Positions 1-58,434 of a stretch of DNA of 64,000 nt are shown one piece after another. The stretch is taken from assembly GCF_056712565.1 (NCBI RefSeq), contig NZ_CM160072.1, one strand, 5' to 3'. How positions within the stretch are numbered: the stretch's first letter is position 1; every line of letters begins with the position of its first letter. Both the position numbers and the translations under genes were made by a program. The notes under the pieces were generated by a model. It saw nothing but the letters and a program-made list of their open reading frames with translations. It did no database searches and was not told the DNA's origin.

Positions 1-1439
1 TCCCGGTGCAGGACAACGGCATTATTCAGGGCACTTTGCAGGCACCGCAATCCAGCTCCTTTGCCAATATGGCCCAGCGGCAACGCCAGGTCGCGGACGT
101 GATTTTGCAGGATCCGGCAGTGCAAAGTTTGACCTCATTTGTTGGCGTTGATGGCACTAACCCGTCGCTGAACAGTGCGCGTTTACAGATCAATCTCAAA
201 CCACTGGATGAACGAGATGACCGGGTGCAAAAAGTCATCGCCCGTCTGCAAACGGCGGTGGATAAAGTGCCGGGCGTCGATCTCTTCCTGCAACCAACGC
301 AGGACCTGACTATTGATACTCAGGTCAGCCGCACCCAGTACCAGTTTACCTTGCAGGCCACGTCACTGGATGCGCTCAGTACCTGGGTGCCACAGTTGAT
401 GGAAAAACTCCAGCAGCTGCCACAGCTTTCTGATGTCTCCAGCGACTGGCAGGACAAAGGGCTGGTGGCGTATGTCAATGTCGACAGGGACAGCGCCAGC
501 CGTCTGGGGATCAGCATGGCGGATGTCGATAACGCCCTGTACAACGCGTTTGGTCAGCGACTGATTTCCACTATTTATACTCAGGCTAACCAGTATCGCG
601 TGGTACTGGAACACAACACCGAAAATACCCCAGGCCTCGCGGCGCTGGATACCATTCGCCTGACCAGCAGCGACGGTGGCGTGGTGCCGTTAAGCTCAAT
701 TGCCAAAATTGAGCAGCGTTTTGCGCCGCTTTCCATCAACCATCTGGATCAGTTCCCGGTAACGACTATCTCCTTTAACGTGCCGGATAACTATTCGCTG
801 GGCGATGCGGTGCAAGCGATTATGGACACAGAGAAGACGCTGAATCTGCCGGTGGATATCACCACGCAGTTCCAGGGCAGCACCCTCGCCTTCCAGTCAG
901 CGCTGGGCAGCACTGTCTGGCTGATTGTCGCGGCGGTGGTGGCGATGTATATCGTGCTCGGCATTCTGTACGAGAGCTTTATTCACCCGATCACCATTCT
1001 CTCGACGCTACCCACCGCAGGGGTCGGCGCGCTGCTGGCGTTAATGATTGCCGGTAGCGAACTGGATGTGATTGCCATTATCGGCATTATTTTGCTGATC
1101 GGTATCGTGAAGAAGAACGCCATCATGATGATCGACTTCGCGCTGGCTGCTGAGCGCGAGCAAGGCATGTCGCCGCGCGAAGCTATTTACCAGGCTTGTC
1201 TGTTGCGTTTTCGTCCGATCCTGATGACCACTCTGGCGGCTCTGCTTGGTGCGCTGCCGCTGATGTTGAGTACCGGGGTCGGCGCGGAACTGCGTCGTCC
1301 GTTAGGTATCGGCATGGTCGGCGGTCTGATTGTCAGCCAGGTGCTGACGCTGTTTACCACGCCGGTGATTTATCTGCTGTTCGACCGTCTGGCATTGTGG
1401 ACCAAAAGCCGCTTTGCCCGTCATGAAGAGGAGGCGTAA
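1..1439 (+). CDS. mdtB: RND multidrug efflux permease MdtB, C-terminal part (5' end outside window)
   Basis: ORF 6..1439 in frame to window edge; RND transporter C-terminal TM-rich sequence; stop overlaps start of next RND gene (mdtBC arrangement). Confidence 0.9.
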
Positions 1440-4400
1440 GTGAAGTTTTTTGCCCTCTTCATTTACCGCCCGGTGGCGACGATTTTACTGTCGGTCGCCA
1501 TTACCCTGTGCGGCATACTGGGTTTCCGTATGCTGCCAGTCGCCCCGCTGCCGCAGGTCGATTTTCCGGTGATCATGGTCAGCGCCTCGCTGCCCGGTGC
1601 GTCACCAGAAACAATGGCGTCTTCCGTTGCCACGCCGCTGGAGCGCTCACTTGGGCGCATTGCCGGAGTCAGCGAAATGACCTCCAGCAGTTCGCTCGGC
1701 AGCACGCGCATTATTTTGCAGTTTGATTTTGACCGGGATATCAACGGCGCAGCGCGCGATGTGCAGGCGGCGATCAACGCCGCGCAAAGTCTGCTACCCA
1801 GCGGGATGCCCAGCCGTCCGACCTATCGCAAAGCGAACCCGTCGGATGCGCCAATTATGATCCTCACGCTGACATCCGATACTTATTCGCAGGGTGAACT
1901 GTACGATTTCGCCTCGACACAGCTGGCTCCGACGATTTCGCAAATCGACGGTGTCGGTGATGTCGATGTTGGCGGCAGCTCGCTGCCCGCCGTACGCGTC
2001 GGGCTGAATCCGCAGGCGCTGTTTAATCAGGGCGTCTCGCTGGACGACGTACGCACCGCCATCAGCAATGCCAACGTGCGTAAACCGCAGGGGGCGCTGG
2101 AAGATGGTACTCACCGCTGGCAGATCCAGACTAACGATGAACTGAAAACCGCCGCTGAATATCAGCCACTGATTATTCATTACAACAACGGCGGCGCGGT
2201 TCGTCTGGGCGATGTGGCGACGGTGACCGACTCAGTACAGGATGTGCGCAACGCCGGGATGACCAACGCCAAACCGGCTATTTTGCTGATGATCCGCAAG
2301 CTGCCGGAAGCCAACATTATCCAGACGGTAGACAGCATCCGCGCCCGTCTGCCGGAATTACAATCCACCATCCCGGCAGCAATTGATCTGCAAATTGCCC
2401 AGGATCGCTCCCCTACTATCCGCGCGTCGCTGGAAGAGGTTGAGCAGACGCTGATTATCTCGGTGGCGCTGGTGATTCTGGTGGTGTTTTTGTTCCTGCG
2501 TTCGGGTCGCGCCACCATTATTCCCGCCGTTGCGGTGCCGGTTTCGCTGATTGGTACGTTTGCGGCGATGTACCTGTGTGGTTTCAGTCTCAATAATCTT
2601 TCGTTAATGGCGCTCACCATCGCCACTGGCTTTGTGGTGGATGACGCCATCGTGGTGCTGGAAAACATTGCCCGTCATCTGGAGGCGGGGATGAAACCGC
2701 TACAGGCCGCGCTGCAAGGTACTCGCGAAGTCGGCTTTACGGTGCTGTCGATGAGTCTGTCACTGGTGGCGGTGTTCCTGCCGCTGCTGTTGATGGGCGG
2801 ATTGCCGGGTCGCCTGTTACGCGAGTTTGCCGTGACGCTTTCTGTCGCCATTGGTATTTCGCTGCTGGTTTCCCTGACGTTAACGCCGATGATGTGCGGC
2901 TGGATGCTAAAAGCCAGCAAGCCGCGCGAGCAAAAGCGACTGCGTGGCTTTGGTCGCATGTTGGTAGCCCTGCAACAAGGCTATGGCAAGTCGCTGAAAT
3001 GGGTGCTCAATCATACCCGTCTGGTGGGCGTGGTGCTGCTTGGCACCATTGCGCTGAATATCTGGCTGTATATCTCGATCCCGAAAACCTTCTTCCCGGA
3101 GCAGGACACCGGCGTACTGATGGGCGGGATACAGGCTGACCAGAGTATTTCGTTTCAGGCGATGCGCGGTAAGTTGCAGGACTTCATGAAAATTATCCGT
3201 GACGATCCGGCGGTGGATAATGTCACCGGCTTTACCGGCGGTTCACGGGTGAACAGTGGAATGATGTTTATCACCCTTAAACCACGCGGCGAGCGGAGCG
3301 AAACGGCCCAACAGATTATCGATCGCTTGCGTAAAAAACTGGCGAAAGAACCGGGAGCGAATCTGTTCCTGATGGCGGTACAGGATATTCGCGTTGGCGG
3401 ACGTCAGGCTAACGCCAGTTACCAGTACACGTTGTTATCCGACGACCTGGCGGCACTGCGCGAATGGGAGCCGAAAATCCGCAAAAAACTGGCGACATTG
3501 CCAGAGCTGGCTGATGTTAACTCCGATCAGGAAGATAATGGCGCGGAGATGAACCTTATTTACGATCGCGACACCATGGCGCGATTGGGAATTGACGTGC
3601 AAGCCGCCAACAGCCTGTTAAATAACGCCTTCGGTCAGCGGCAAATCTCGACCATTTACCAGCCGATGAACCAGTACAAAGTGGTGATGGAAGTTGATCC
3701 GCGCTATACCCAGGACATCAGTGCACTGGAAAAAATGTTCGTTATCAATAACGAAGGAAAAGCGATCCCGCTGTCGTATTTCGCTAAATGGCAACCGGCG
3801 AACGCTCCACTGTCGGTGAATCATCAGGGATTATCGGCGGCCTCGACCATTTCGTTCAACCTGCCGACCGGGAAATCGCTCTCGGACGCCAGTGCGGCGA
3901 TCGATCGCGCAATGACCCAGCTTGGTGTGCCTTCGACGGTGCGCGGCAGTTTTGCCGGAACAGCGCAAGTGTTCCAGGAGACGATGAACTCACAGGTGAT
4001 CCTGATTATCGCCGCCATCGCCACGGTATATATCGTACTGGGTATCCTTTACGAGAGTTATGTGCATCCACTGACGATTCTCTCCACCCTACCCTCGGCG
4101 GGCGTCGGAGCGCTGTTGGCGCTGCAGCTGTTCAATGCCCCGTTCAGCCTAATTGCGCTGATAGGGATCATGTTATTAATCGGCATCGTGAAGAAAAACG
4201 CCATTATGATGGTCTATTTTGCGCTTGAAGCCCAACGGCACGGTAACCTGACGCCGCAGGAAGCTATTTTCCAGGCCTGTCTGCTGCGTTTTCGCCCGAT
4301 TATGATGACTACCCTGGCGGCGCTGTTTGGTGCGCTGCCGCTGGTATTGTCGGGCGGTGACGGCTCGGAGTTGCGGCAACCATTGGGGATCACCATTGTC

Positions 4401-8688: not shown

Positions 8689-9303
8689 TCACGCCCCACA
8701 ATCACCAATCTGATCCACCACCGTCAGATACCAGTCACTGTCATAACTGTAAAGTTGACTTAAATAAAATACCAGTCCATCGTTACTCTCTTCTGGCGCA
8801 GCGACCACACGCACGGCCCCGTATTCCATTCGACGCGCTGCGGCAATCTGCGCATCAGAAATAGTATTTTGCGGTGAACCAAACATCTGCGTGAAGACCA
8901 AACTACGGCTGACTTTATGGTGAACATCGCTATTGCTAATAAAATACCCCTGCTTATTCCAGCCACGTTCGCAGTTAAATTTCGGGATAGCTTTCTTATT
9001 AAATTCGTCATCTCGCGGAACATGTTCCCCTGCCGAGGGCCATGGGAAATACTCGGGAACAGGTTGCCTGAAATTAATTTGCTTAAGATTTTCAACATCC
9101 ATCGAAGCACCACGGTGGAAAAGAACATACAAACCCGTTTTTTTATCAATTAACGAGTTGATTAATTGGGCATCTTCTTGCTGAAAGCCCATAATCACCT
9201 TTCTGGCTGTTTCCTCCAGCGTACACCCGGCATTGGCGGGTAAAGAAAAGAATATCAGCCCCACCAGCATCATTCCTTTTTTTAACATCAGCATTGTTTG
9301 CAT
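8689..9303 (-). CDS. Hypothetical lipoprotein (island gene 4)
   Basis: 204-aa ORF; N-terminal hydrophobic signal ending ANAGC (lipobox-like); AT-rich; last gene of a minus-strand cluster. Confidence 0.65.
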   Translation of the reverse strand: MQTMLMLKKGMMLVGLIFFSLPANAGCTLEETARKVIMGFQQEDAQLINSLIDKKTGLYVLFHRGASMDVENLKQINFRQPVPEYFPWPSAGEHVPRDDEFNKKAIPKFNCERGWNKQGYFISNSDVHHKVSRSLVFTQMFGSPQNTISDAQIAAARRMEYGAVRVVAAPEESNDGLVFYLSQLYSYDSDWYLTVVDQIGDCGA

Positions 9304-9354
9304 CTTCTCATCATGGGGCTCATATTACACATTTAACAATTTTCAGGATAAACC

Positions 9355-11463
9355 TTACACCATACTGTTAACCTGGCCGGGTAATTCGCTAGCTGGAATA
9401 CGAAAGGTATACCAGGCATAACGACAGCGTTTCCACAGGCTGGAGAAATGGAGATGATAAAGGCAATCTGCAATAATTTCGTTATCTGGATATAAAGACT
9501 CGGCAAAATGTGTCCAGCGCGCACTGAGTTTCATGTTAAACAGTTTTTCATCTTCTTTGTTACCATACAGGCGCGACAAAGTAATCATTGCTTCGAGCGT
9601 ACCTTTATTCGCTTCTTCTTGTACCTGTTGGAGGTGCAAATGAGCAAGTGAGAGTTCTTTCACCTCAAAGATATTAAGTAAAAAAAGCCCCCATGCTTTT
9701 TCATGTCCAGCTTCATGAGCCAGAAATAAATTGTCAAGGAGATTTTTTTCATAAATAGCCCGTGTTTCTTTAGAAATTTCTTGTTTATTTAGTGCCTGGT
9801 AGCAGATAGCAATGCTAAAATAAATATTTTGTAGATCTTGTTGATGTTCGCTATAACCATAATTTTTTACCAGTGGATAAGATACCGAGCTATGGAAATT
9901 TAGGTCATCTTGAAGTATTTTAAGTGCCCGTCGAAAATACTCCAAAGCTGTAGATGGTTCATAAGGTAATTTTGTATTGTCTTCCTTATCCAAATATTCA
10001 AGAGCAACTAAATTTAATGCGGCAGGAATATTTCTTTGCTTACCAATTGTCGCAAGCGGAATGAAATAATCAGAAAGGTCAAACCAACTCAAATCTTTTA
10101 TTGCCGACCGCCAATTATGATTGTATTTAATGTCACTAGCTTTTTCCAGCCAAGCATCGCCCTGCCCTTCATCTTTTTCAAAACCCAAAATACCCTCTCG
10201 CTGGAAAAACCCCCTATAAATAACAGGTGTAGCATAAGTTGTATTCTGTGAATTTTGGCAGATAAAATTATATATCCAGAATGAATCTGGATAATAACTT
10301 AATGCAAATTTTATCGCGTACGCAGTGTAATAATTATTGAGCTTCATGTCTTCCATCACCGCTCGCTGTATACAGCACCACAACTTATCGTGATCGTTCT
10401 GCTTGTTATAGCAGGCAAGTAACCACTCTAGGGCATTATGGCGACATTCCTGAAATTGTGCGTACTGAGCAATATTCTCTGCTAAGTCGATTGCATATTG
10501 TTGCTCCTCGGGCGCAATGTCCTCAATGCTGACATCTCGGTAATCATCCCACCAAAGTAAGAGATCCATATAGTCATGTTCTTCGGTAGATAAGTGCTTA
10601 CAGGTTACTGAATCCAGCAATTCGGAAATTTCTTTATGCGACCCTCCCCAGCGTGGCATTCGAAATGGTATATATTCAACAAAAGGATAAAAAGTGTGAG
10701 GAAAAATAGTCAGGCAAACAGAAAGCCAATATTTTTGCCCACCATCATCATCATACTCAGGAAGTATATTGGGGCGAGGCAAAACGGGGCATATTGCATG
10801 CTCAAACGAAAGTCCGGAATACGCCATCAACGCTTCCACTTCTTGCGGGGAGCGGCGGTGATAATTTTTCAGTGCGATCATTAATGGTATTCCTGCGACA
10901 CTATCACCGTTAAGGTGTGCCGCCAGCCAGGCTGGCTGACCAAATACTTTTGAGTTGGTGCTGGTAAGTAATGCAGCCATCCATTGTCGTGGGTCACAAT
11001 CAATTGCTTTAAGTGTAGCGATGACCATTTGTTCATTACATGCACCAGCACAAAGCCACATTGCATGTGTGGTATCATTTGCCCAGCCATAACTGCGATA
11101 TAACCATGCACGGTGATTCCAGTATTGTGCTTCGGCAAGCCAGGCATGTGTAGAATGAGGTCTTGCTTGCTGCCAGGTTTTAATGAGTCTTAAACCTTCT
11201 GTTCCGGCATCAACTAGCGTGTTCATATCATAAAAATAGTTGCACATTTGGGTCCAGGATAAAAAATAGCGCTTTTCAGCCTGACGAGAAGTGAAACTCT
11301 CCTGTAATACCTGGTTATAAATTTCATCTAGTTCCTGATAACGTTTTTCTTGTAACATATAAGGAATATTTGCGATTTGCCATTTTCTCTCAAGAGTATT
11401 AAGTGGCATTTTTTGGTCACACATCTTTTGCATTGCACTGAGTAAACGAGCATCCTGTTCCAT
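9355..11463 (-). CDS. Large hypothetical protein with Sel1/TPR-like C-terminal region and an HExxH motif (island gene 3)
   Basis: ORF 9355..11502; likely start is ATG at 11463 (MEQDARLL) preceded by AAGGA RBS and lying just after the upstream stop; HEAGH encoded at 9703..9717. Confidence 0.65.
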   Translation of the reverse strand: MEQDARLLSAMQKMCDQKMPLNTLERKWQIANIPYMLQEKRYQELDEIYNQVLQESFTSRQAEKRYFLSWTQMCNYFYDMNTLVDAGTEGLRLIKTWQQARPHSTHAWLAEAQYWNHRAWLYRSYGWANDTTHAMWLCAGACNEQMVIATLKAIDCDPRQWMAALLTSTNSKVFGQPAWLAAHLNGDSVAGIPLMIALKNYHRRSPQEVEALMAYSGLSFEHAICPVLPRPNILPEYDDDGGQKYWLSVCLTIFPHTFYPFVEYIPFRMPRWGGSHKEISELLDSVTCKHLSTEEHDYMDLLLWWDDYRDVSIEDIAPEEQQYAIDLAENIAQYAQFQECRHNALEWLLACYNKQNDHDKLWCCIQRAVMEDMKLNNYYTAYAIKFALSYYPDSFWIYNFICQNSQNTTYATPVIYRGFFQREGILGFEKDEGQGDAWLEKASDIKYNHNWRSAIKDLSWFDLSDYFIPLATIGKQRNIPAALNLVALEYLDKEDNTKLPYEPSTALEYFRRALKILQDDLNFHSSVSYPLVKNYGYSEHQQDLQNIYFSIAICYQALNKQEISKETRAIYEKNLLDNLFLAHEAGHEKAWGLFLLNIFEVKELSLAHLHLQQVQEEANKGTLEAMITLSRLYGNKEDEKLFNMKLSARWTHFAESLYPDNEIIADCLYHLHFSSLWKRCRYAWYTFRIPASELPGQVNSMV

Positions 11464-11473
11464 AGATATCCTT

Positions 11474-12190
11474 TTAATTAGGTTCAAAAATTTTAAATTC
11501 ATTCCACGGCAATTTTTTCCAGTTACTGGATGGATCTTTCAACCATGCAGTGACTTCCTTTAAATCACGGTTCGCAGTGGCGACGGGGGTATCGTATATC
11601 ATTAACCATTTTTGTCGGGCGCGAACATAAGCACTGGCATAATCTTCCCATGAAGCGAAACAATCTTGTGCTCTTTGAGCATTCAGTAATAACACTATCC
11701 AGGCCTGGTTTTCATCGCACCAGCCTAAACCGGCGATGCAACGAGTTAAAAAAGCAGTGCGCATACAGTCAAACGCCAGCCCATCCAGAACCTGGCCTTG
11801 TGCTGCCAGTTGTTCGTAAAAATCATGTGGAGAATTACCAAGCCCTGTAGCCCAGCGCTGTAATATAACGCCAATTTGTTGACGGAAATCTTCGTTGCTT
11901 TGGTAAGTTTCTGTTCCTAGCTCTTGTTTAACCTGTAGTGCAAGTTGTTGACGCTTATCATCAGTCAACTTTAAATCTAACGTGAAGCCATTTACTGACA
12001 GTCCATTACGACGAGCAACTATATCACCAATTGCTAATGCCCACTTACGTCTCTTTGTTGCTCGTCTTTTGTCCTTGATTAGATCCTTTTCTTTTTCTTT
12101 AGCAATAAAAGCATCGATTTGTGGTTTGTTTTTTTTGTATCTATAGATAAAAATAAATATTGCGACCAGGAGAACAATGATAAGACTCAT
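11474..12190 (-). CDS. Single-pass membrane-anchored hypothetical protein, possibly DUF1266-like (island gene 2)
   Basis: 238 aa; N-terminal TM helix LIIVLLVAIFIFIY then basic stretch; start ATG overlaps the upstream stop by 1 nt (TAATG). Confidence 0.65.
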   Translation of the reverse strand: MSLIIVLLVAIFIFIYRYKKNKPQIDAFIAKEKEKDLIKDKRRATKRRKWALAIGDIVARRNGLSVNGFTLDLKLTDDKRQQLALQVKQELGTETYQSNEDFRQQIGVILQRWATGLGNSPHDFYEQLAAQGQVLDGLAFDCMRTAFLTRCIAGLGWCDENQAWIVLLLNAQRAQDCFASWEDYASAYVRARQKWLMIYDTPVATANRDLKEVTAWLKDPSSNWKKLPWNEFKIFEPN

Positions 12191-13404
12191 TATTTTTCAA
12201 CCTCTGACAGGGGTAAGTAATGAGATGTCTGTAATGTCAAACTCTCTATCTCAAAGGAAATGTTGCTGATATTTTGACCTGCAAATTGCGGATGCCACTC
12301 AGCGCCAGGGAATAACATTTCCGCAGAAGTAGCAACTATAGGGTCAATAGCATTAAGATAATGTAACTTATCAGGTGCGCTGTGTAACAGTAACCACTGC
12401 AACTCCACTGAAGGATTTGTAAAATGTTCTAATAAATGAAAGTTATTATGTAGTACGCTTAGTAAAAAACTGGTTTCGTATACTTCCGTTACATATTTCC
12501 ACCCCTGATATTCAGGTGTATTTTCATAAACAATACCCATACCTTCACAATCACTATGTCGAACTGCTTGTGGTGATAATAGTTGCAAAAGAGACAAAAC
12601 ATCGTCCGCATATTTTTTAACTGGATGACGATTTTGCTTACCTTTTATTTGATCAATTTCAAGTGAATCACCAACAACATTGAGAGCAATAGTAACATGA
12701 GGAATATTATTATTATCACGCAAACTGAATAACCGTAATTTATGTTGCTCAATTTGATTTGCATAATACTCACCATAACCACCGGTAAGATTTTTTCGAT
12801 CATCAAACTGGCCTACGCAATGTTGCATATGCCATGATTCATAAGCCATTTCACGACGAAGGTTCGAATGACTGGCATCAAACTCAACAATTTTTCCGTC
12901 TGGCACATCAAGTATTGACTTTACAGTATTTTGTTCACTCGGCTGCCACCCTTTCTCGCGTCGTTGAAGCATCTTTTCATGCTCTTCTTCACGCATTCTG
13001 AACGCAACGTAGCAGGTTATGCGCTGTAGTTTTGATTCCAGACGGGTACCACATTTCCTGGAAAGAAATTCCACCAACTCCCGTTCTTTGGTTAATATTT
13101 GTTGATGATCGGTTTCGATATAATAAAGTGTCGCAGTTGATACTGAGGCAGTATTAAACTTCGATACCAGCCATTCCGGGATTACATCATCATTTTTATT
13201 AAACAGTGAATATTCTGCAAGCGAGTTAATTTGTTGCACCATTGGAAAGTCACTAATTAGCCATCGATAAAAATGGTTGAGTAACCATTTTTGGATGGTC
13301 TCATTATCCTGGCGAAACAGACTTCTTTGCAAAATTGCTGTTTTTACTTCCGGGGCATTAATTACATCCCTTGCATTATAATTCTGGTGAATATTTCCAG
13401 TCAT
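12190..13404 (-). CDS. Hypothetical protein (island gene 1)
   Basis: 404-aa ORF, first gene of the minus-strand cluster, AT-rich upstream region; no motif I can name with confidence. Confidence 0.65.
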   Translation of the reverse strand: MTGNIHQNYNARDVINAPEVKTAILQRSLFRQDNETIQKWLLNHFYRWLISDFPMVQQINSLAEYSLFNKNDDVIPEWLVSKFNTASVSTATLYYIETDHQQILTKERELVEFLSRKCGTRLESKLQRITCYVAFRMREEEHEKMLQRREKGWQPSEQNTVKSILDVPDGKIVEFDASHSNLRREMAYESWHMQHCVGQFDDRKNLTGGYGEYYANQIEQHKLRLFSLRDNNNIPHVTIALNVVGDSLEIDQIKGKQNRHPVKKYADDVLSLLQLLSPQAVRHSDCEGMGIVYENTPEYQGWKYVTEVYETSFLLSVLHNNFHLLEHFTNPSVELQWLLLHSAPDKLHYLNAIDPIVATSAEMLFPGAEWHPQFAGQNISNISFEIESLTLQTSHYLPLSEVEK

Positions 13405-13891: not shown

Positions 13892-15253
13892 ATGTTTAAA
13901 CCGGAACTCCTTTCCCCGGCGGGAACGCTGAAAAATATGCGTTACGCTTTCGCTTATGGCGCAGATGCTGTTTATGCGGGCCAGCCGCGTTACTCCCTGC
14001 GTGTACGCAACAACGAATTCAACCACGAAAATCTTCAGCTCGGCATCAATGAAGCCCACGCGCTGGGGAAAAAGTTTTATGTCGTGGTCAACATTGCACC
14101 GCACAACGCCAAGCTGAAAACCTTTATCCGTGACCTGAAACCGGTGGTGGAAATGGGGCCGGATGCGCTGATTATGTCCGATCCAGGGCTGATTATGCTG
14201 GTGCGTGAACACTTCCCGGAAATGCCAATCCACCTCTCGGTACAGGCTAACGCCGTAAACTGGGCGACGGTGAAATTCTGGCAGCAAATGGGTCTGACCC
14301 GCGTGATCCTCTCTCGCGAACTGTCACTGGAAGAGATTGAAGAGATCCGCAATCAGGTGCCGGATATGGAGATCGAAATCTTCGTTCACGGCGCGCTGTG
14401 CATGGCCTACTCCGGTCGCTGCCTGCTCTCTGGCTATATCAACAAGCGCGACCCGAACCAGGGCACCTGCACCAACGCCTGCCGCTGGGAGTACAATGTC
14501 CAGGAAGGGAAAGAAGATGACGTCGGCAACATCGTACACAAGTACGAGCCGATTCCGGTGCAAAATGTTGAGCCGACGCTGGGTATCGGCGCGCCAACCG
14601 ACAAAGTGTTTATGATCGAAGAAGCCCAGCGTCCGGGCGAGTATATGACCGCGTTTGAAGATGAGCACGGCACTTACATCATGAACTCGAAAGATCTGCG
14701 CGCCATCGCCCATGTTGAACGCCTGACCAAAATGGGCGTGCATTCGCTGAAAATCGAAGGCCGTACCAAATCTTTCTACTATTGCGCACGCACCGCGCAG
14801 GTTTACCGTAAAGCTATCGATGACGCCGCTGCGGGCAAACCGTTCGATACCAGCCTGCTGGAAACGCTGGAAGGTCTGGCGCATCGTGGCTATACCGAAG
14901 GTTTCCTGCGTCGTCATACCCACGACGATTATCAGAACTACGAATACGGTTATTCGGTTTCTGACCGCCAGCAGTTTGTTGGTGAGTTTACCGGTGAGCG
15001 CAAGGGGGAGCTCGCGGCGGTAGCGGTGAAAAATAAATTCTCCGTTGGCGACAGCCTTGAGCTGATGACGCCGCAAGGCAACATTAACTTTACCCTTGAG
15101 CATATGGAAAACGCCAAAGGTGAAGCGATGCCGGTCGCACCAGGCGATGGTTATACTGTGTGGCTCCCGGTGCCGCAGGATCTTGAGCTAAATTACGCGC
15201 TGCTGATGCGTAATTTCTCCGGGGAAACCACGCGTAACCCCCACGGTAAGTGA
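13892..15253 (+). CDS. yegQ: Peptidase U32-family protein YegQ
   Basis: 453 aa starting MFKPELLSPAGTLKNMRYAFAYGADAVYAG; conserved position next to cyaR. Confidence 0.9.
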   Translation: MFKPELLSPAGTLKNMRYAFAYGADAVYAGQPRYSLRVRNNEFNHENLQLGINEAHALGKKFYVVVNIAPHNAKLKTFIRDLKPVVEMGPDALIMSDPGLIMLVREHFPEMPIHLSVQANAVNWATVKFWQQMGLTRVILSRELSLEEIEEIRNQVPDMEIEIFVHGALCMAYSGRCLLSGYINKRDPNQGTCTNACRWEYNVQEGKEDDVGNIVHKYEPIPVQNVEPTLGIGAPTDKVFMIEEAQRPGEYMTAFEDEHGTYIMNSKDLRAIAHVERLTKMGVHSLKIEGRTKSFYYCARTAQVYRKAIDDAAAGKPFDTSLLETLEGLAHRGYTEGFLRRHTHDDYQNYEYGYSVSDRQQFVGEFTGERKGELAAVAVKNKFSVGDSLELMTPQGNINFTLEHMENAKGEAMPVAPGDGYTVWLPVPQDLELNYALLMRNFSGETTRNPHGK

Positions 15254-41588: not shown

Positions 41589-43805
41589 ATGGAACTTAGA
41601 TTAAAAAATGTTACCAGTTATAAGAAAGACGCCTTCACAATACTGAATCTTGAAAAAAGAGTAAACATACTATACGGCCAAAATGGTTGTGGCAAATCTA
41701 CCATTTCAAATTATTTCTACGACTCTACACACACAGATTATAACGAGTGTGAATGTACCCTTCTTGACAATTACAAACCTCTTGTTTACAACACTAAATT
41801 TATTGAAGATAACTTCTATAATGCACAGGAACAAAAAGGTGTTTTTACATTAAGTAAAGAAAATGCAGATATTGAAAAACAATTAATTGAAAAAGAAGCA
41901 ATTAAACAGCAACTCACAGAGCAATATAGACAAAAAAAAGGAGTGTTATTGAAATTAGAAGCAGAAATGGAAAAAAAAGAAAATGAATACATCGAATCGA
42001 TCTGGAAAAAAACAGAACCAATCAGAAACTCTGTACTAAAAACCTTAATGAAAGGTAAAGTTGGCTATAAAAGACCTTTTTTTGAGATGATAAAATCATC
42101 CTCACCAATCACCTTTATTAATTTAAATGATATAGCAAAAGAATACTCTATACTATTAGAAAATAGAAACAATGAAACCGCATTAATAACTCCTTTACAT
42201 CCATATACCCCATCAATTGATGATGTAAATACATTAGCAACACCTATAATAGATACAAGCAATAGCTATTTATCAGAAACCATTAATAAACTTCATAATC
42301 TTGACTGGGTAAAAAAAGGTAAAGAACATTATTTAGACGGTTCTACATGTCCGTTTTGTCAGGAAAAAACTATTAGTCACGAATTTTTAAATGCCCTTAA
42401 ATCAATATTTGACGAAAGTTATTCAAAGAAAGTAAAACAGCTCTCAGATATAAAGTCAGTTTATGAGAAAAATACCATATATCATTTTAACGAAATACAA
42501 AACAATATATCATCATGTGCACTAATCAATGAGAAAGATAAAGAGAACATTATTTCCAATATTAAAATATTGCAAAACATTGCAGAAAAAAATTTAATAA
42601 ACATTATTGATAAGATCAACAATCCATCAACATGCGTTACATTAGAAATTGATAAAGAACTAGAAAATCATGTTCAGGAAAGCATAGGCGCTGTTAACAA
42701 GAAAATAAGAGACATAAATGATAAGGTTAAAAAACTCAAAGAGTATGAGAATAAAATCGGAAAACAAGTTTGGGGGGCTCTCCATGCTTTTTGCAGCGAT
42801 GATTTAGAGAATTTATCCAAACACAAAGAAAAATTCTTTGATATCAAAAAGAAAGTTCATGATGAATTAAATAATATTGAGCAACAAGGAAAAGAAAATA
42901 ATCTCACAATAAAAGCATTGCGAGATAAAATATCTAACATTGATTCTACGATAGACTCAATAAACACCCATTTAAAAAATCTAGGGATCTCTGGTTTTTG
43001 TATTGAAAAACATGCAGAAAGAAAAGATATGTACATTATATCTCGACCAGGGCATACAAAAAACCAAAATGTTTATAGATCTCTTAGCGAAGGTGAAAAA
43101 ACACTAATAACGTTTCTTTATTTTTTAGAGTGCTGTAAAGGTAAAACCGATAAAAATGATACCGATAGCAGGGATATTTTTATTGTTATTGACGATCCAA
43201 TATCTAGTCTATCGCAAAACTATGTCTACGACATCGCATCAATTATTCATCACCACATTATAAAAAATGAATTAACAAAGAAGGTATTAATCCTTACTCA
43301 CAATCTTTATTTCTTTCATGAACTTATTAAGCTATCTCCTAAAAGCAGAGAAGACAAACTATTTAAGAAAAACTATTATCTAGGTAGAGTAACGAAAAAT
43401 GATTTTAGTATAATTACTGAAATACAAAAAAACAGCATACAGAATGAATATCAATCTTTGTGGCAAATATTAAAAGATGCAAAAGATGGCAAAGCAAACA
43501 AAATCATAATACCGAATATTATGAGAAACATACTAGAATATTATTTTGCATTTGTTCATAGAACAGATGCTCTACAAGATGAATTAACAAAGTTGGCACG
43601 CGACGATAGCAACAGTGATTTCAAAGCATTCTACAGATACATTAACAGAGGTTCTCACTCTGATGCGGTAAATATTACTGATATGGGCGACATAGACCCA
43701 GATAAATACCTAAAACAATTGAGAACAATATTTTCAGCTACTGGTGACGAAATGCATTATTTAAAAATGATGGACGAACTAGAAGAGGAAAACGTTACCG
43801 CTTAG
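41589..43805 (+). CDS. SMC/ABC-type P-loop ATPase with CxxC and C-terminal R-x3-E...H tail; RloC/PrrC-like anticodon-nuclease candidate (prophage cargo, tin/old position)
   Basis: Walker A GQNGCGKST near N-terminus; CPFC about aa 253; Walker B IFIVIDDP and LILTHN H-loop about aa 525-560; C-terminal RNILE...H; strongly AT-rich. Confidence 0.7.
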   Translation: MELRLKNVTSYKKDAFTILNLEKRVNILYGQNGCGKSTISNYFYDSTHTDYNECECTLLDNYKPLVYNTKFIEDNFYNAQEQKGVFTLSKENADIEKQLIEKEAIKQQLTEQYRQKKGVLLKLEAEMEKKENEYIESIWKKTEPIRNSVLKTLMKGKVGYKRPFFEMIKSSSPITFINLNDIAKEYSILLENRNNETALITPLHPYTPSIDDVNTLATPIIDTSNSYLSETINKLHNLDWVKKGKEHYLDGSTCPFCQEKTISHEFLNALKSIFDESYSKKVKQLSDIKSVYEKNTIYHFNEIQNNISSCALINEKDKENIISNIKILQNIAEKNLINIIDKINNPSTCVTLEIDKELENHVQESIGAVNKKIRDINDKVKKLKEYENKIGKQVWGALHAFCSDDLENLSKHKEKFFDIKKKVHDELNNIEQQGKENNLTIKALRDKISNIDSTIDSINTHLKNLGISGFCIEKHAERKDMYIISRPGHTKNQNVYRSLSEGEKTLITFLYFLECCKGKTDKNDTDSRDIFIVIDDPISSLSQNYVYDIASIIHHHIIKNELTKKVLILTHNLYFFHELIKLSPKSREDKLFKKNYYLGRVTKNDFSIITEIQKNSIQNEYQSLWQILKDAKDGKANKIIIPNIMRNILEYYFAFVHRTDALQDELTKLARDDSNSDFKAFYRYINRGSHSDAVNITDMGDIDPDKYLKQLRTIFSATGDEMHYLKMMDELEEENVTA

Positions 43806-48878: not shown

Positions 48879-49892
48879 ATGGCAATCAAAAAACTCGATG
48901 ATGGTCGATATGAAGTGGACATCCGCCCTACTGGACGTAACGGAAAACGCATCCGTAGGAAGTTTGATAAGAAAAGCGAAGCTGTCGCTTTCGAAAAATA
49001 CACGTTGTACAACCACCACAATAAAGAATGGCTATCAAAACCAACAGACAAACGACGTCTGTCGGAACTGACACAGATCTGGTGGGATTTAAAGGGTAAA
49101 CACGAAGAGCATGGGAAATCTAATCTTGGAAAAATTGAAATCTTCACAAAAATAACGAATGACCCATGCGCATTTCAAATCACGAAATCCCTTATCAGCC
49201 AGTACTGCGCCACCCGAAGAAGCCAGGGTATTAAACCTTCGAGTATCAATCGTGATTTAACATGTATTAGCGGCATGTTTACAGCCCTGATTGAAGCGGA
49301 GTTATTCTTTGGTGAGCACCCTATCAGAGGGACAAAGAGGCTTAAGGAGGAAAAACCAGAAACAGGCTATCTCACACAGGAAGAAATTGCCTTACTGCTT
49401 GCAGCACTTGACGGCGACAATAAAAAGATTGCGATTCTTTGCCTGAGTACAGGAGCACGTTGGGGAGAAGCAGCTCGTTTGAAAGCAGAAAATATCATCC
49501 ATAACCGCGTCACGTTTGTTAAAACGAAAACAAACAAACCACGCACCGTCCCGATTTCAGAGGCTGTTGCCAAAATGATCGCGGATAACAAACGAGGTTT
49601 TTTATTCCCTGATGCTGATTACCCTCGCTTCAGACGAACAATGAAAGCAATAAAACCGGATTTGCCAATGGGGCAAGCCACACATGCACTAAGGCACAGC
49701 TTTGCCACTCATTTCATGATTAATGGAGGAAGTATTATCACGCTACAACGGATACTAGGTCACACGCGGATTGAGCAAACTATGGTTTACGCTCATTTTG
49801 CGCCAGAGTACCTTCAGGACGCCATTTCTCTTAATCCGCTAAGAGGTGGTACTGAGGCCGAGAGTGTCCACACAGTGTCCACAGTAGAGTAA
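48879..49892 (+). CDS. int: Integrase (tyrosine recombinase)
   Basis: 337 aa; catalytic R...HALRHSFATHF...GH...YAH; adjacent to att core. Confidence 0.9.
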   Translation: MAIKKLDDGRYEVDIRPTGRNGKRIRRKFDKKSEAVAFEKYTLYNHHNKEWLSKPTDKRRLSELTQIWWDLKGKHEEHGKSNLGKIEIFTKITNDPCAFQITKSLISQYCATRRSQGIKPSSINRDLTCISGMFTALIEAELFFGEHPIRGTKRLKEEKPETGYLTQEEIALLLAALDGDNKKIAILCLSTGARWGEAARLKAENIIHNRVTFVKTKTNKPRTVPISEAVAKMIADNKRGFLFPDADYPRFRRTMKAIKPDLPMGQATHALRHSFATHFMINGGSIITLQRILGHTRIEQTMVYAHFAPEYLQDAISLNPLRGGTEAESVHTVSTVE

Positions 49893-50326: not shown

Positions 50327-50644
50327 TCACTCTCCACATTTGAATGTCAGACGAGCGACGCCATGTAATCCTGCACCTTCTGTCTTCAGGTCAACTATCT
50401 GCATTTTTTTGCCCTGAGTAACACAGAAATGAACTGCATCATTTTTTACTATATTTTCTGCACCAGATATTCTACCCCTGGCTAAAGAAGCTTCGGCTTC
50501 GGTGTAGTATTGGTTATCGAGTTTACGCTGAATATTACTTTTATATGCAAGACCAAATTTACCGATACTTGTCTCATCATTATGTACAGCACACCCAGAC
50601 ATAAGAAAAACACTAATTAATGATATAGCAGCTATCTTTTTCAT
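50327..50644 (-). CDS. yegR: Small lipoprotein YegR
   Basis: 105-aa product MKKIAAISLISVFLMSGC (lipobox); ORF-track start is further upstream. Confidence 0.75.
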   Translation of the reverse strand: MKKIAAISLISVFLMSGCAVHNDETSIGKFGLAYKSNIQRKLDNQYYTEAEASLARGRISGAENIVKNDAVHFCVTQGKKMQIVDLKTEGAGLHGVARLTFKCGE

Positions 50645-51059
50645 CTCACCTTCCCCCATTAAATACCAACGACACTCTCTAGTGTTTAAATATAATAATG
50701 GCATGATTATTATAATTGAATAGGATTATAATAAATGTTCTGTACAACATTTCCTACATAAGTAGGAATTACAGACATGGTGGCCCTTCCGGGTAACCCT
50801 ATGGGGGGCTTAAATATATTTTGAATAGTATATTTAAGATGCCACTATTTAGTTGAATATTAGATATTTGCTCTTTTTTCAAATTTACTGGTGGCTACCG
50901 TTAATATTCGCTGTTCCCATTGCAAGCTCCTGGTGGTAACCACTGAATCCTCCATACTTGAACTGACTTTTTATCCTCCGACTTTCATCCTGTTCTGACT
51001 CCACCTTTTCTTTTCTGCTCTACACTATCTACAGACCAATCATAAAGGCACATACGATC

Positions 51060-51959: not shown

Positions 51960-52040
51960 TAAAACTATTCTCTGTTGAACCAGAGAGAATCCGTAATGCC
52001 GGATGCGGTGTAAACACCTCATCCGGCATACAGAACAATA

Positions 52041-52820
52041 CTACACCGTAATTAATTTTACCCGTGTCTTCTGCAATGCCAGTTTATCCACCTCAGACAC
52101 AGCATCATCGGTAATAATAATGTCAATTTTTTCGATTGGCAGTACCTGATTAAAACCGCGACGGTTAAATTTCGATGAATCGAGAACGGCAATCACTTTA
52201 TTCGCCGCTGTCACCATCGCACCGCTAACGGAATAACCTTCATTAAAGGTCGTAATACCATTAACCGCATCAATACCATCAGCACCGACAAACATTAAAT
52301 CGGCATTAATATCCTGCAGGGAACGTTCAGCAATAGATCCATGCATAGATCGCGTTTTATGGCGGACCGTGCCACCGCAGACGACCAGAGTAATGTCTTT
52401 ATTTTCGGAAAGGGCAAACGCCGCCGGGAGACTGTTGGTAATCACCGTGATATTTTTGGCGGTCATTAAACCTTCGGCGATAAGCATTGTGGTACTTCCG
52501 CTGTCGAGAATAACGGTCATCCCTTCGTGGATCATTTTGACTGCCGCCTGCGCTATTCTGTTTTTTGGCGCACTGGCGAGCTGAAATCGCTCTTTAAACC
52601 CAACTTCCTGGGTCTCGGTTTCACTATTACCGGACATTATTTTCGCCGCACCGCCATGAAAGCGCGTAACCACGCCTTTTTGTTCGAGAAAGCGCAAATC
52701 GGCACGGATTGTCGCTTCCGAGGCAGCAAATACTCCCGCCAGATCCTGAACAAGCACGGTTCCCTGTTCATTCACTAATTGGATGATCTTATTCCTTCGC
52801 TCGAATGAATTCATCGTCAT
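52041..52820 (-). CDS. gatR: DeoR-family repressor of the galactitol operon GatR (full length)
   Basis: 259 aa, HTH N-terminus plus sugar-binding domain; upstream of gatD. Confidence 0.85.
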   Translation of the reverse strand: MTMNSFERRNKIIQLVNEQGTVLVQDLAGVFAASEATIRADLRFLEQKGVVTRFHGGAAKIMSGNSETETQEVGFKERFQLASAPKNRIAQAAVKMIHEGMTVILDSGSTTMLIAEGLMTAKNITVITNSLPAAFALSENKDITLVVCGGTVRHKTRSMHGSIAERSLQDINADLMFVGADGIDAVNGITTFNEGYSVSGAMVTAANKVIAVLDSSKFNRRGFNQVLPIEKIDIIITDDAVSEVDKLALQKTRVKLITV

Positions 52821-52919
52821 TTACCCATATTCAATTGTGGCTAGTGTAAACGAAGGGGGACCATTGGTGAATGATCTGTTTTGCACAATACCGGGCCAGC
52901 ATCACGCTGGCCCGCGGTT

Positions 52920-53960
52920 TCAGGGAATGAGCAACACTTTGCCCGGCATAGCATTACGAGCGATGTCACGCACCGCCTGGGCGAAGCTTTCAAAGCTTCC
53001 ACGGTGAGCGATTAATGGCTCCAGGCTTAACTTACGTTCTGTCAGCAACCGGCTCGCCGTTTCCCACTCCTGCCCCGGCCAAGGGCTGGAGTAGTTCATC
53101 CAACTGCCGATAACCGTCAGCTCTTTACGTAATATTTTGCCAAACGTTGTCGATGTTAAATGCAGATCCTGATGCAACGTGCCCACCAGCGCCAGCTGGG
53201 CATGAGGCCCGGCAATCTCTACCGCCAGTTCGACAGTTTGCGGGACGCCAGCCGTCTCGAGGATAAGCTGATTAAAGCGCAGCTCGCGTAAAACGCCCTG
53301 CATTTGCGGCGCGCTCATTTCAAGGCTGTTAAATGTTTGCATCGCACCGAAAGATTTTGCCAGTGCCAGTTTTTCTGAGCTAATGTCGATAGCCGTCACA
53401 CTCTTTGCTCCCAGCGCGACAGCGCACTGAATAGCCAGCAGGCCAATGGTTCCGGCACCAATAATAATAACGTTTTTATTCTCACAACCTTGCGCTAAAT
53501 GAAAAGCATGCAGGCCAACGGTAATCGGCTCAATAAAAGCCCCATCCTCAATAGGCATATCCGTGGGTAGAGCAAAGACATTTTTTCGCTTAACGACAAT
53601 ATATTCAGCAAGTCCACCATCACGCCGCGAGCCAATAAAATCATATTTTGCGCACTGGGAATAAAACCCTTTCAAACACTCTGGACAAGTAAAACAGGGT
53701 AATAACGGCACACAGGCAACCACATCGCCAGGGTGTAAATCATCAACACCGGATCCCACCGCATCAATATAGCCGCTAAATTCATGACCTAACGTTATTG
53801 GATAATAATGTGCACCATTTTTAAATATCCTGGGTAAATCGGAACCACATAAGCCCGAGCTGGCAATTTTTACCCGCACCTCATCCTGATGTTTAATTTC
53901 AGGAATGACGCTTTCTGCAACGCGCACGATACCATCAGTATCATTCACCACTGATTTCAT
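52920..53960 (-). CDS. gatD: Galactitol-1-phosphate 5-dehydrogenase GatD
   Basis: 346 aa, zinc-ADH/MDR family. Confidence 0.9.
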   Translation of the reverse strand: MKSVVNDTDGIVRVAESVIPEIKHQDEVRVKIASSGLCGSDLPRIFKNGAHYYPITLGHEFSGYIDAVGSGVDDLHPGDVVACVPLLPCFTCPECLKGFYSQCAKYDFIGSRRDGGLAEYIVVKRKNVFALPTDMPIEDGAFIEPITVGLHAFHLAQGCENKNVIIIGAGTIGLLAIQCAVALGAKSVTAIDISSEKLALAKSFGAMQTFNSLEMSAPQMQGVLRELRFNQLILETAGVPQTVELAVEIAGPHAQLALVGTLHQDLHLTSTTFGKILRKELTVIGSWMNYSSPWPGQEWETASRLLTERKLSLEPLIAHRGSFESFAQAVRDIARNAMPGKVLLIP

Positions 53961-54007
53961 AAAAACTCCTGATTATTAAGGGGGATAACCTCCCCCTCAG
54001 GTAAAAA

Positions 54008-55363
54008 TTATTCTGCGAGAACGGCTTTCTCTTGTTTAATAAAGCCACGCGCTCTACGCCAGGTCATGAAAATACCGGTAAGATAAATGGCACCGATAAT
54101 AATGAAACCGGGAATATTTTGCGGGGAGAAAACCTGAATCAGTAACCAGGTAATGGGAGAACCGCCCTGATCCATTGAAGCCACCATGCCCCCGGCTTTT
54201 AACGCCCCAGCATTAGCCGCCAGTTGGGTGTGCAAACCAATAGTTTGCGTCGCGATCCACAGGGTGATGCTCATAATGATGACACCCGAGATTAAGGTGC
54301 GGAACAGATTTCCACGATGCACGGCAACTGCCATCGCCACAAAGAAGCCGATAGTTGCAAGATCGCCAAACGGCAGCACCTGATTACCCGGAACACAAAC
54401 AGCAATTAAAATGGTGAGAGGGATAAAAATCAGGCTTGCCGATACCACCGCCGTATGCCCCAGCAGCAACGCCGGATCAAGGCCAATCAGGAACTCCTGA
54501 CCGCCGAACTTCGCCTGTAAACGACTACGGGCCTGCTTAGCGATGGGCGTTAAACCATCCATGATGGGTTTAATCACCCGTGGCATCAGCAGCATAACTG
54601 CCGCCGTTTTTACCGCCAGCTGCAATACACCTTTGACATCGTAACCCGCGAGGATGCCGGTAATCAGCCCCATCACAAAGCCCACGGTGACAGGTTCGCC
54701 AAATGGGCCAAATTTGCGCTGAATATCGTCGGCGCTAAATTTAATACGGTTAACGCCTGGGATTTTCTCGATGATAGCATCCACCAGCACCGCAATTGGC
54801 CCCAGATACGCCGACGTACCGTGCGGAATAGCAATGCCTTCCAGCTCAAAGAAATTTCGAGTATCGCGGGCAAACCAGTCGCCGAGCTTATAAACAAACG
54901 CCGCGTGAATTACCACACCCGCCATCCCTATCATCCATGAACCGGTTGCCAGATGCAGCAATGCGCCGGTGAAGGTCATATGCCAGATATTCCAGATATC
55001 AACATTTACCACCCGCGTCATACGGGTCAGTAGCATCGCCACGTTAACCAGAATCGCAATCGGAATCGCCACCAGCGCAATTTGCGACGCCCAGGTCATT
55101 GGTGAAGAGCCCGGCCAACCGACATCGACCACATGCAGATTCAGGTCAAAATTTTCCGCCATCGCTTTCGCCGCCGGGCCAATGGAATCCAGCATTAAGC
55201 CAATCACAAGGCCAATACCAACAAAGCCAATCCCGATATGCAGACCTGCTTTAAAGCAATCGCCTGCCTTCATGCCTAATATTTTAGAAAAAATAATGAT
55301 GACAATCGGCAGCATCACCGTAGGGCCGAGGTCGAGAATATAACGCATGACTTCTGAAAACAT
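54008..55363 (-). CDS. gatC: PTS galactitol EIIC GatC
   Basis: 451 aa, polytopic. Confidence 0.9.
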   Translation of the reverse strand: MFSEVMRYILDLGPTVMLPIVIIIFSKILGMKAGDCFKAGLHIGIGFVGIGLVIGLMLDSIGPAAKAMAENFDLNLHVVDVGWPGSSPMTWASQIALVAIPIAILVNVAMLLTRMTRVVNVDIWNIWHMTFTGALLHLATGSWMIGMAGVVIHAAFVYKLGDWFARDTRNFFELEGIAIPHGTSAYLGPIAVLVDAIIEKIPGVNRIKFSADDIQRKFGPFGEPVTVGFVMGLITGILAGYDVKGVLQLAVKTAAVMLLMPRVIKPIMDGLTPIAKQARSRLQAKFGGQEFLIGLDPALLLGHTAVVSASLIFIPLTILIAVCVPGNQVLPFGDLATIGFFVAMAVAVHRGNLFRTLISGVIIMSITLWIATQTIGLHTQLAANAGALKAGGMVASMDQGGSPITWLLIQVFSPQNIPGFIIIGAIYLTGIFMTWRRARGFIKQEKAVLAE

Positions 55364-55366
55364 AGG

Positions 55367-55651
55367 TCACCCCTGTAAGATAGTCAGAATTTTATTTTGT
55401 AATGCTTCGATACCGACACCAGAAACAAAAGGCATGCCGTGAACTAACGGAATATTGCCAAAACTACGATCCACCCTGGCAGTGGTGCATATCAAATGCA
55501 CGCCATCCATATAGGTTTCTATTTCATTAACCCGACACTGGATTAATTCAACAGGAATATTATGACTCTGACACAACTCTTTAATTTCTTCCGCCGCCAT
55601 CGTAGAGGTCGCAACCGCGCCTCCGCAAGCGACAATAATTTTGCGTTTCAT
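55367..55651 (-). CDS. gatB: PTS galactitol EIIB GatB
   Basis: 94 aa. Confidence 0.9.
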
Positions 55652-55681
55652 AAATAGTCCTTTTTATTGTTACAGAGGGAT

Positions 55682-56134
55682 TTATTCGTCTGAATCTAAA
55701 ACATACTTTGTGAAGTATTCCTTTAACTGGGTTTCAGGAAGAGTGATTAGTGTCTCGACGATATCGGGCTGTTGTAACTTGCCAAATAAACAGCGTAAAA
55801 GTTTCAATTGCTGCTGCGGATTTTCCACAATCAACGCAATAACCAACGATACCGCCACGTCGTTATCATCATCCGCTTGCTGAAAATGAACTTTATTTGT
55901 TGGCCTTAACAGATAAATGGCTGACGACTTAGCATGAATCGCCTCACAATGCGGTATTGCAATGGCGTGCTGCTGAAGCATTATCCCGGTAGGGAATTCT
56001 GCTTCTCTGGTAATTAATGCCTGTGGCCAGGTATCATGAACCACACCTTTCGCGAGCATCTCATTACCGATATGGGTTAAAACTTCGCTACGATCGACAA
56101 AAGAAATTCCGCTACGAACAAACAGGTTAGTCAT
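55682..56134 (-). CDS. gatA: PTS galactitol EIIA GatA
   Basis: 150 aa. Confidence 0.9.
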   Translation of the reverse strand: MTNLFVRSGISFVDRSEVLTHIGNEMLAKGVVHDTWPQALITREAEFPTGIMLQQHAIAIPHCEAIHAKSSAIYLLRPTNKVHFQQADDDNDVAVSLVIALIVENPQQQLKLLRCLFGKLQQPDIVETLITLPETQLKEYFTKYVLDSDE

Positions 56135-56143
56135 ATACCGTCC

Positions 56144-58301
<2,158 letters not shown>

Positions 58302-58405
58302 TCATTTATTTTCGATTTCAAAACATAATGAAATTATTTGTTTTTAAATGTCGCGATAACGATCACAAAAACGACAATATGAAAATCAATCCAGGAATGA
58401 AAGGC

Positions 58406-58434
58406 AAAAAAAACGGCCTCCCGGGGGAAGCCGT
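58406..58434 (-). terminator. Rho-independent terminator downstream of fbaB
   Basis: Minus strand: 9-bp stem ACGGCTTCC/GGAGGCCGT, 4-nt loop, then TTTTTTTT. Confidence 0.6.

Follow-up and report, generated by a model that had tools for sequence, protein, structure and literature searches.

In Escherichia coli K-12 the gatR gene, which belongs to the galactitol (gat) operon, is annotated as a pseudogene (MG1655 locus b4498) in two fragments around a copy of IS3E at positions 2170171-2171428 (1258 bp). Descriptions of this lesion go back to the 1990s, and PMC4072538 credits both the IS3E insertion and the constitutive gat expression of K-12 to Nobelmann and Lengeler (1996). Sousa et al. put the gatR allele of strain HS in place of the K-12 pseudogene and obtained a regulated gat operon; in mice, constitutive gat mutants re-arose through new IS insertions in the HS allele, and when E. 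coli was evolved experimentally in the mouse gut, selection acted on gat regulation again and again (PMC5850726). Relative to REL606, a strain with an intact gatR and low levels of gat mRNA and proteins, MG1655 over-expresses gat (PMC3446290). Silencing of gatR by CRISPRi strongly affected the fitness of strain CFT073, in the mouse gut, and of strain LF82; MG1655 showed no such effect (bioRxiv 10.64898/2026.01.05.697630). As silencing alters the gut fitness of CFT073, the repressor must be active in that strain, and the authors of the preprint suggested that de-repression of gat in vivo may not succeed in B2 strains (bioRxiv 10.64898/2026.01.05.697630).

The gatR locus analysed here lies in a stretch of 64,000 nucleotides (hereafter the window). 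An earlier note on this DNA had claimed that the window carries gatR as an uninterrupted 259-aa DeoR-family open reading frame (ORF), that the K-12 copy is disrupted by an insertion sequence and that the K-12 operon is consequently constitutive. The first claim was confirmed by the ORF listing, by retranslation (259 codons with an ATG start and zero internal stops) and by the Pfam domains of the product. The K-12 disruption was borne out by the annotation of b4498 and by the junction mapped below, and constitutive expression is supported by the literature (PMC5850726, PMC3446290, PMC4072538). We consider it highly probable that gatR of the window is a wild-type, functional allele of the DeoR-family galactitol-operon repressor, from an extraintestinal pathogenic E. 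coli (ExPEC) of the ST95-like type in phylogroup B2. The features of the locus are listed in Table 1.

Table 1. Features of the gat locus and its control regions (window coordinates).
Feature	Position	Strand	Details
gatR CDS	52041..52820	minus	longest ORF 259 aa, stop codon included; protein WP_001367074.1
DeoRC C-terminal sensor (effector-binding) domain	52107..52568	minus	PF00455, residues 85-238
Codon 198 (GTT, Val)	52227..52229	minus	sole amino-acid difference from HS/K-12 allele (Ile)
GTC triplet, duplicated around IS3E in K-12	52516..52518		single-copy and uninterrupted in window; codon 101 (259-aa frame)
HTH_DeoR winged helix-turn-helix, DNA-binding	52641..52799	minus	PF08220, residues 8-60
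gatD-gatR intergenic region	52821..52919	minus	99 bp; hairpin near gatD stop
gatD	52920-53960	minus	346 aa
gatC	54008-55363	minus	451 aa
gatB	55367-55651	minus	94 aa
gatA	55682-56134	minus	150 aa
gatZ	56144-57406	minus	420 aa
gatY	57435-58289	minus	284 aa
gatY control region	58290..58412	minus	downstream of fbaB terminator (stem 58413-58434)

The N-terminal HTH_DeoR domain was matched with an E-value of 1.3e-16 (score 60.5 bits, cut-off 21) and the DeoRC domain with an E-value of 1.8e-51 (score 174.7 bits, cut-off 31.8) over profile positions 5-159 of 160; since Pfam finds both HTH_DeoR and a nearly full-profile DeoRC, the two-domain architecture of GatR is complete, and the two defining domains place the protein in the DeoR/GlpR family of transcription regulators. 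Weak RpiA-like matches were also found, in accord with a relationship between DeoRC and domains that bind sugar phosphates. When solved structures were searched by sequence, GatR returned the DeoR C-terminal domain alone (PDB 7l6l, E 1.4e-11), a homologue of the sensor domain, and no GatR structure on which residue 198 could be placed.

The longest reading of gatR starts MTMNSF..., while the RefSeq/PGAP start is the second ATG, two codons later (window 52814, MNSF...), which gives a protein of 257 aa; the MG1655 annotation likewise begins gatR at the second ATG, and both the 259-aa and the 257-aa forms are found in public protein sets. A weak Shine-Dalgarno-like motif, GGG(T), is located 3 nt 5' of the first ATG and 9 nt 5' of the second. 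This spacing favours the second ATG, and the choice of start is without effect on the conclusion.

Exact-word matching against the K-12 derivative GB2005 located the IS3E junctions to the single base. The gatR sequence of GB2005 was found to continue to window-equivalent position 52518, where it gives way to IS3 (TGATCTTACCCAGC ... GGGTAGGATCA), and to resume at 52516; the GTC target triplet is duplicated in K-12 and the inserted length is 1261 bp (1258 + 3). The insertion falls after coding-strand nucleotide 302 of the 259-codon frame and, because it is inside codon 101, cuts the DNA-binding domain off from the sensor domain; the predicted leftover K-12 product consists of 101 GatR residues followed by 11 IS-encoded residues. 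The two genes are orthologues at the same chromosomal position, interrupted in K-12 but uninterrupted in the window.

Once IS3 and one GTC copy are removed, K-12 gatR is the same as HS gatR at 780/780 nt. The alignment with K-12 gatR that the earlier note had set beforehand as a check was colinear over 259/259 residues with a single substitution, and no frameshift, truncation or indel was found in window gatR when it was aligned with IS-free K-12 and HS gatR. The window gene differs from both at 24 nt, of which 23 are synonymous and one is non-synonymous. HS GatR (WP_001295426.1), which has the same locus and the same length, thus shares 258/259 residues with window GatR and carries I198 in place of V198 (synonymous divergence, dS, 0.139). 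The ratio of non-synonymous to synonymous divergence (dN/dS) of gatR against HS was 0.012 (Nei-Gojobori), while the values for the six structural genes were higher (0.03-0.46); the low gatR ratio indicates strong purifying selection on this gene. CFT073 and Nissle 1917 encode a protein identical to that of the window (WP_001367074.1), which also occurs in strains 95-3322 and 1919D3; the CRISPRi phenotype of CFT073 thereby gives the V198 allele indirect functional support. Nissle gatR has 14 synonymous nucleotide differences from window gatR, and CFT073 has IS200C between gatY and fbaB, an insertion that the window does not carry.

The synonymous divergence of gatR is high for E. coli, at 0.139 against HS and 0.081 against Nissle (also B2), and identity of at least 99% over the 1.1-kb gatR region was observed in only 176 of 5110 records. 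These values suggest that gatR lies within a recombination-rich or highly polymorphic region, a setting which we presume may be due to proximity to rfb.

As V198, the one amino-acid difference from the experimentally validated HS allele, lies within the sensor domain, it was considered whether the V198 (B2-type) protein is functionally altered, either as a weak repressor or as a 'super-repressor' that responds poorly to induction and leaves gat cryptic despite galactitol. This is quite unlikely, as valine and isoleucine replace each other conservatively, neither allele is rare (at least 1000 public contigs carry each one, and both came up repeatedly when genomes were sampled at even spacing), and the dN/dS of gatR points to strong purifying selection; furthermore, a null repressor would yield no CRISPRi phenotype in CFT073. 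In a related and quite unlikely reading, the B2-type gat locus as a whole (GatR V198 together with its own gatY control-region variants) would differ in inducibility from the A/B1-type (I198), with ExPEC keeping gat tightly shut in the gut. In the sequence it has no support beyond a single conservative substitution and several SNPs in the promoter; if true, it would explain the benefit of gatR silencing in CFT073 and LF82.

The state of the structural genes bears on whether an intact repressor matters at all. Elsewhere, intact gatR is found beside a broken structural gene, with an internal stop in gatD of both FORC_028 (EHEC-like) and O145:NM FWSEC0002, and the MG1655 reference has gatC as a pseudogene; natural loss of the gat pathway appears to show in the structural genes rather than in gatR. 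It is nevertheless very unlikely that the window has an intact gatR whose regulation is irrelevant in a Gat-negative strain with a defective pathway, as gatY, Z, A, B, C and D (52920..58289) all match their K-12 or HS counterparts in length and have no stop other than the terminal one, and the identical region of ATCC 11775 has no pseudogene flag on its gat structural genes.

The identity of the ORF as gatR follows its family and its neighbours. The gene order is yegS (plus strand), then gatR, gatD, gatC, gatB, gatA, gatZ, gatY and fbaB (all minus), and the same order was observed in HS, Nissle 1917, CFT073, MG1655 and every E. coli record examined; gatR follows gatD immediately, after the last gene of gatYZABCD, and adjoins yegS. 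Several sources name the GatR protein alleles galactitol utilization operon repressor. The suggestion that the ORF instead encodes a different sugar repressor of the DeoR family, for instance a paralogue of the AgaR or SrlR kind, could draw on its top NCBIfam matches (AgaR, NF040755, 232.7 bits; SrlR/GutR, NF007753, 227.8 bits) and on a PGAP product name that reads merely DeoR/GlpR family regulator, but has a negligible probability given that both scores are under the curated equivalog cut-offs (260 and 350 bits, respectively), that the ORF sits in the gatR position beside gatD and that it is 99.6% identical to K-12 gatR (b4498). AgaR and SrlR (GutR), the repressors of the N-acetylgalactosamine and glucitol operons, have the same two domains, align with GatR over the full length and likewise belong to operons for PTS sugars or polyols; as its scores are below the equivalog cut-offs, GatR is a paralogue of these proteins and not a member of either group.

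With the gene accepted as gatR, the regions that may control it and its presumed targets, gatYZABCD, were analysed. A predicted gatR promoter and ribosome-binding site would presumably be located inside the gatD-gatR intergenic region. Just past the gatD stop there is a perfect 9-bp GC-rich inverted repeat (52892-52914; CGGGCCAGC-N5-GCTGGCCCG) which has no T run; the hairpin folds stably, while the gatD-gatR spacer taken whole does not exceed shuffled controls in structure (z -1.1). Due to the missing T run and the unremarkable spacer, the hairpin was rejected as a terminator; the repeat may act as an mRNA 3'-end stabiliser, or it may set gatR apart from the operon as a partial terminator. The sole terminator-like site of the scan (51969-51986, minus strand) adjoins a REP-like palindromic element (51998-52028; GCCGGATGCGGTGTAAACACCTCATCCGGCA) in the 81-bp gap between the convergent yegS and gatR stops.

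Scans of the gatD-gatR spacer and of the region upstream of gatY for consensus sigma-70 sites gave no convincing promoter, and the sigma-70 matches near gatR were all within coding sequence, in a number close to chance expectation. A repeat search for operator motifs common to the gatR and gatY upstream regions detected no direct repeats; the same search detected AT-rich inverted repeats at gatY only, which could be chance. One of these (58315-58349; ATTTAAAAACA-N13-TGTTTTGAAAT) would overlap a putative -10 element, and it is a candidate GatR operator only, because a repeat in AT-rich DNA may be due to chance. The gatY control region also contains a CRP-like sequence, TGTGA-N6-TCGCG, at 58349-58367. 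The fbaB-gatY spacer is 228 bp in the window and in Nissle and 307 bp in HS, where the extra ~80 bp resemble additional REP/BIME-type palindromic units; the ~110 bp proximal to gatY are conserved with HS save for a few SNPs.

On the basis of knowledge of the family and of the published near-identical and identical alleles, the N-terminal helix-turn-helix of GatR would bind an operator at the gatY promoter and hold gatYZABCD off. Galactitol would enter via the GatABC phosphotransferase system, and a phosphorylated intermediate derived from it probably binds the DeoRC domain and so releases the repressor; galactitol-1-phosphate and tagatose-6-phosphate are the likely candidates for this putative inducer. 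Full gat expression probably also requires cAMP-CRP.

The occurrence of intact gatR was assessed by searching a region of 1101 nt (the end of yegS, gatR and the end of gatD) against 5426 complete E. coli genomes. Any match to this region was observed in 5109 of the 5426 genomes, and 4756 had it uninterrupted, with coverage of at least 80%. The K-12-type gatR-IS3 junction, searched with an 80-nt probe, was detected in 345/5426 genomes, laboratory derivatives of ~4.6 Mb such as ER1709, and explains nearly all of the 353 genomes with a partial match only. In 11 genomes that were inspected (identity 96.6-100%), gatR was always an unflagged CDS of 257 aa, and V198 and I198 were the only two protein alleles. 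As the intact state is the norm (4756/5426), an intact gatR is not distinctive for the source strain.

The few remaining genomes with a partial match include two other rearrangements of the region. In BL21(RP) (NZ_CP084683.1) an IS1 end is fused to gatR at the equivalent of window ~52590 and is followed by a truncated tynA, and gatR of this strain is destroyed through an IS1-mediated rearrangement; most B strains apparently have a contiguous gatR region. In PCP06238 the genes from gatR through fbaB are lost in an IS1-associated deletion, and IS1 stands in their place.

Relatives of the source strain were identified from the wider window. The 1.1-kb gatR region is 100% identical to that of E. 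coli ATCC 11775, and 25 kb of the window are 100% identical to ST95-like ExPEC/APEC genomes (Z0117EC0054, SF-468 and APEC O1/O2:K1:H7). The window was rejected as being the type strain ATCC 11775 itself, as the ATCC 11775 record has an ISEc12 insertion which is absent from the window. There is also a single-base indel relative to ATCC 11775 at window ~59750, in the fbaB-yegT intergenic region.

Elsewhere in the window, a P2-like prophage (~15800-49900) with an integrase gene (48879-49892), cox, a replication endonuclease gene and tail and capsid genes is located between yegQ/trhP (13892-15253) and yegR (50327-50704); at the same site K-12 retains only ogrK and part of gpD as a remnant, and the prophage is absent from HS and BL21. 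An ORF for a 738-aa AAA_13 ATPase (41589-43805, plus strand) is located in this prophage, flanked by the replication endonuclease gene and the late genes; in PADLOC it gave a full-length match (E 1e-254) to PDC-S06, a candidate single-gene defence system, and it has weaker similarity to PrrC, LmuB and AriA. This ORF is intact in the window and is split by ISEc12 (IS21 family) in ATCC 11775. A four-gene island (8689-13404, minus strand) between yegP and yegQ encodes a 204-aa hypothetical protein, a DUF4034 protein (715 aa), a DUF1266 protein (238 aa) and a PcfJ-like protein (404 aa). CFT073 and Nissle 1917 also carry the island, whereas HS, K-12, BL21 and PCP06238 lack it, and no PADLOC match was found in it.

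An intact gatR is thus the already documented, ordinary state of the gene, found in approximately nine in ten complete E. coli genomes, and it is the K-12 copy that is the exception; the value of the present finding is for annotation and the prediction of phenotype, with little for discovery. Since neither gatR nor any of the six structural genes is disrupted, the source strain would be expected to use galactitol inducibly, unlike the constitutive K-12. This difference in regulation is relevant because gat regulation is repeatedly selected in the mouse gut (PMC5850726).
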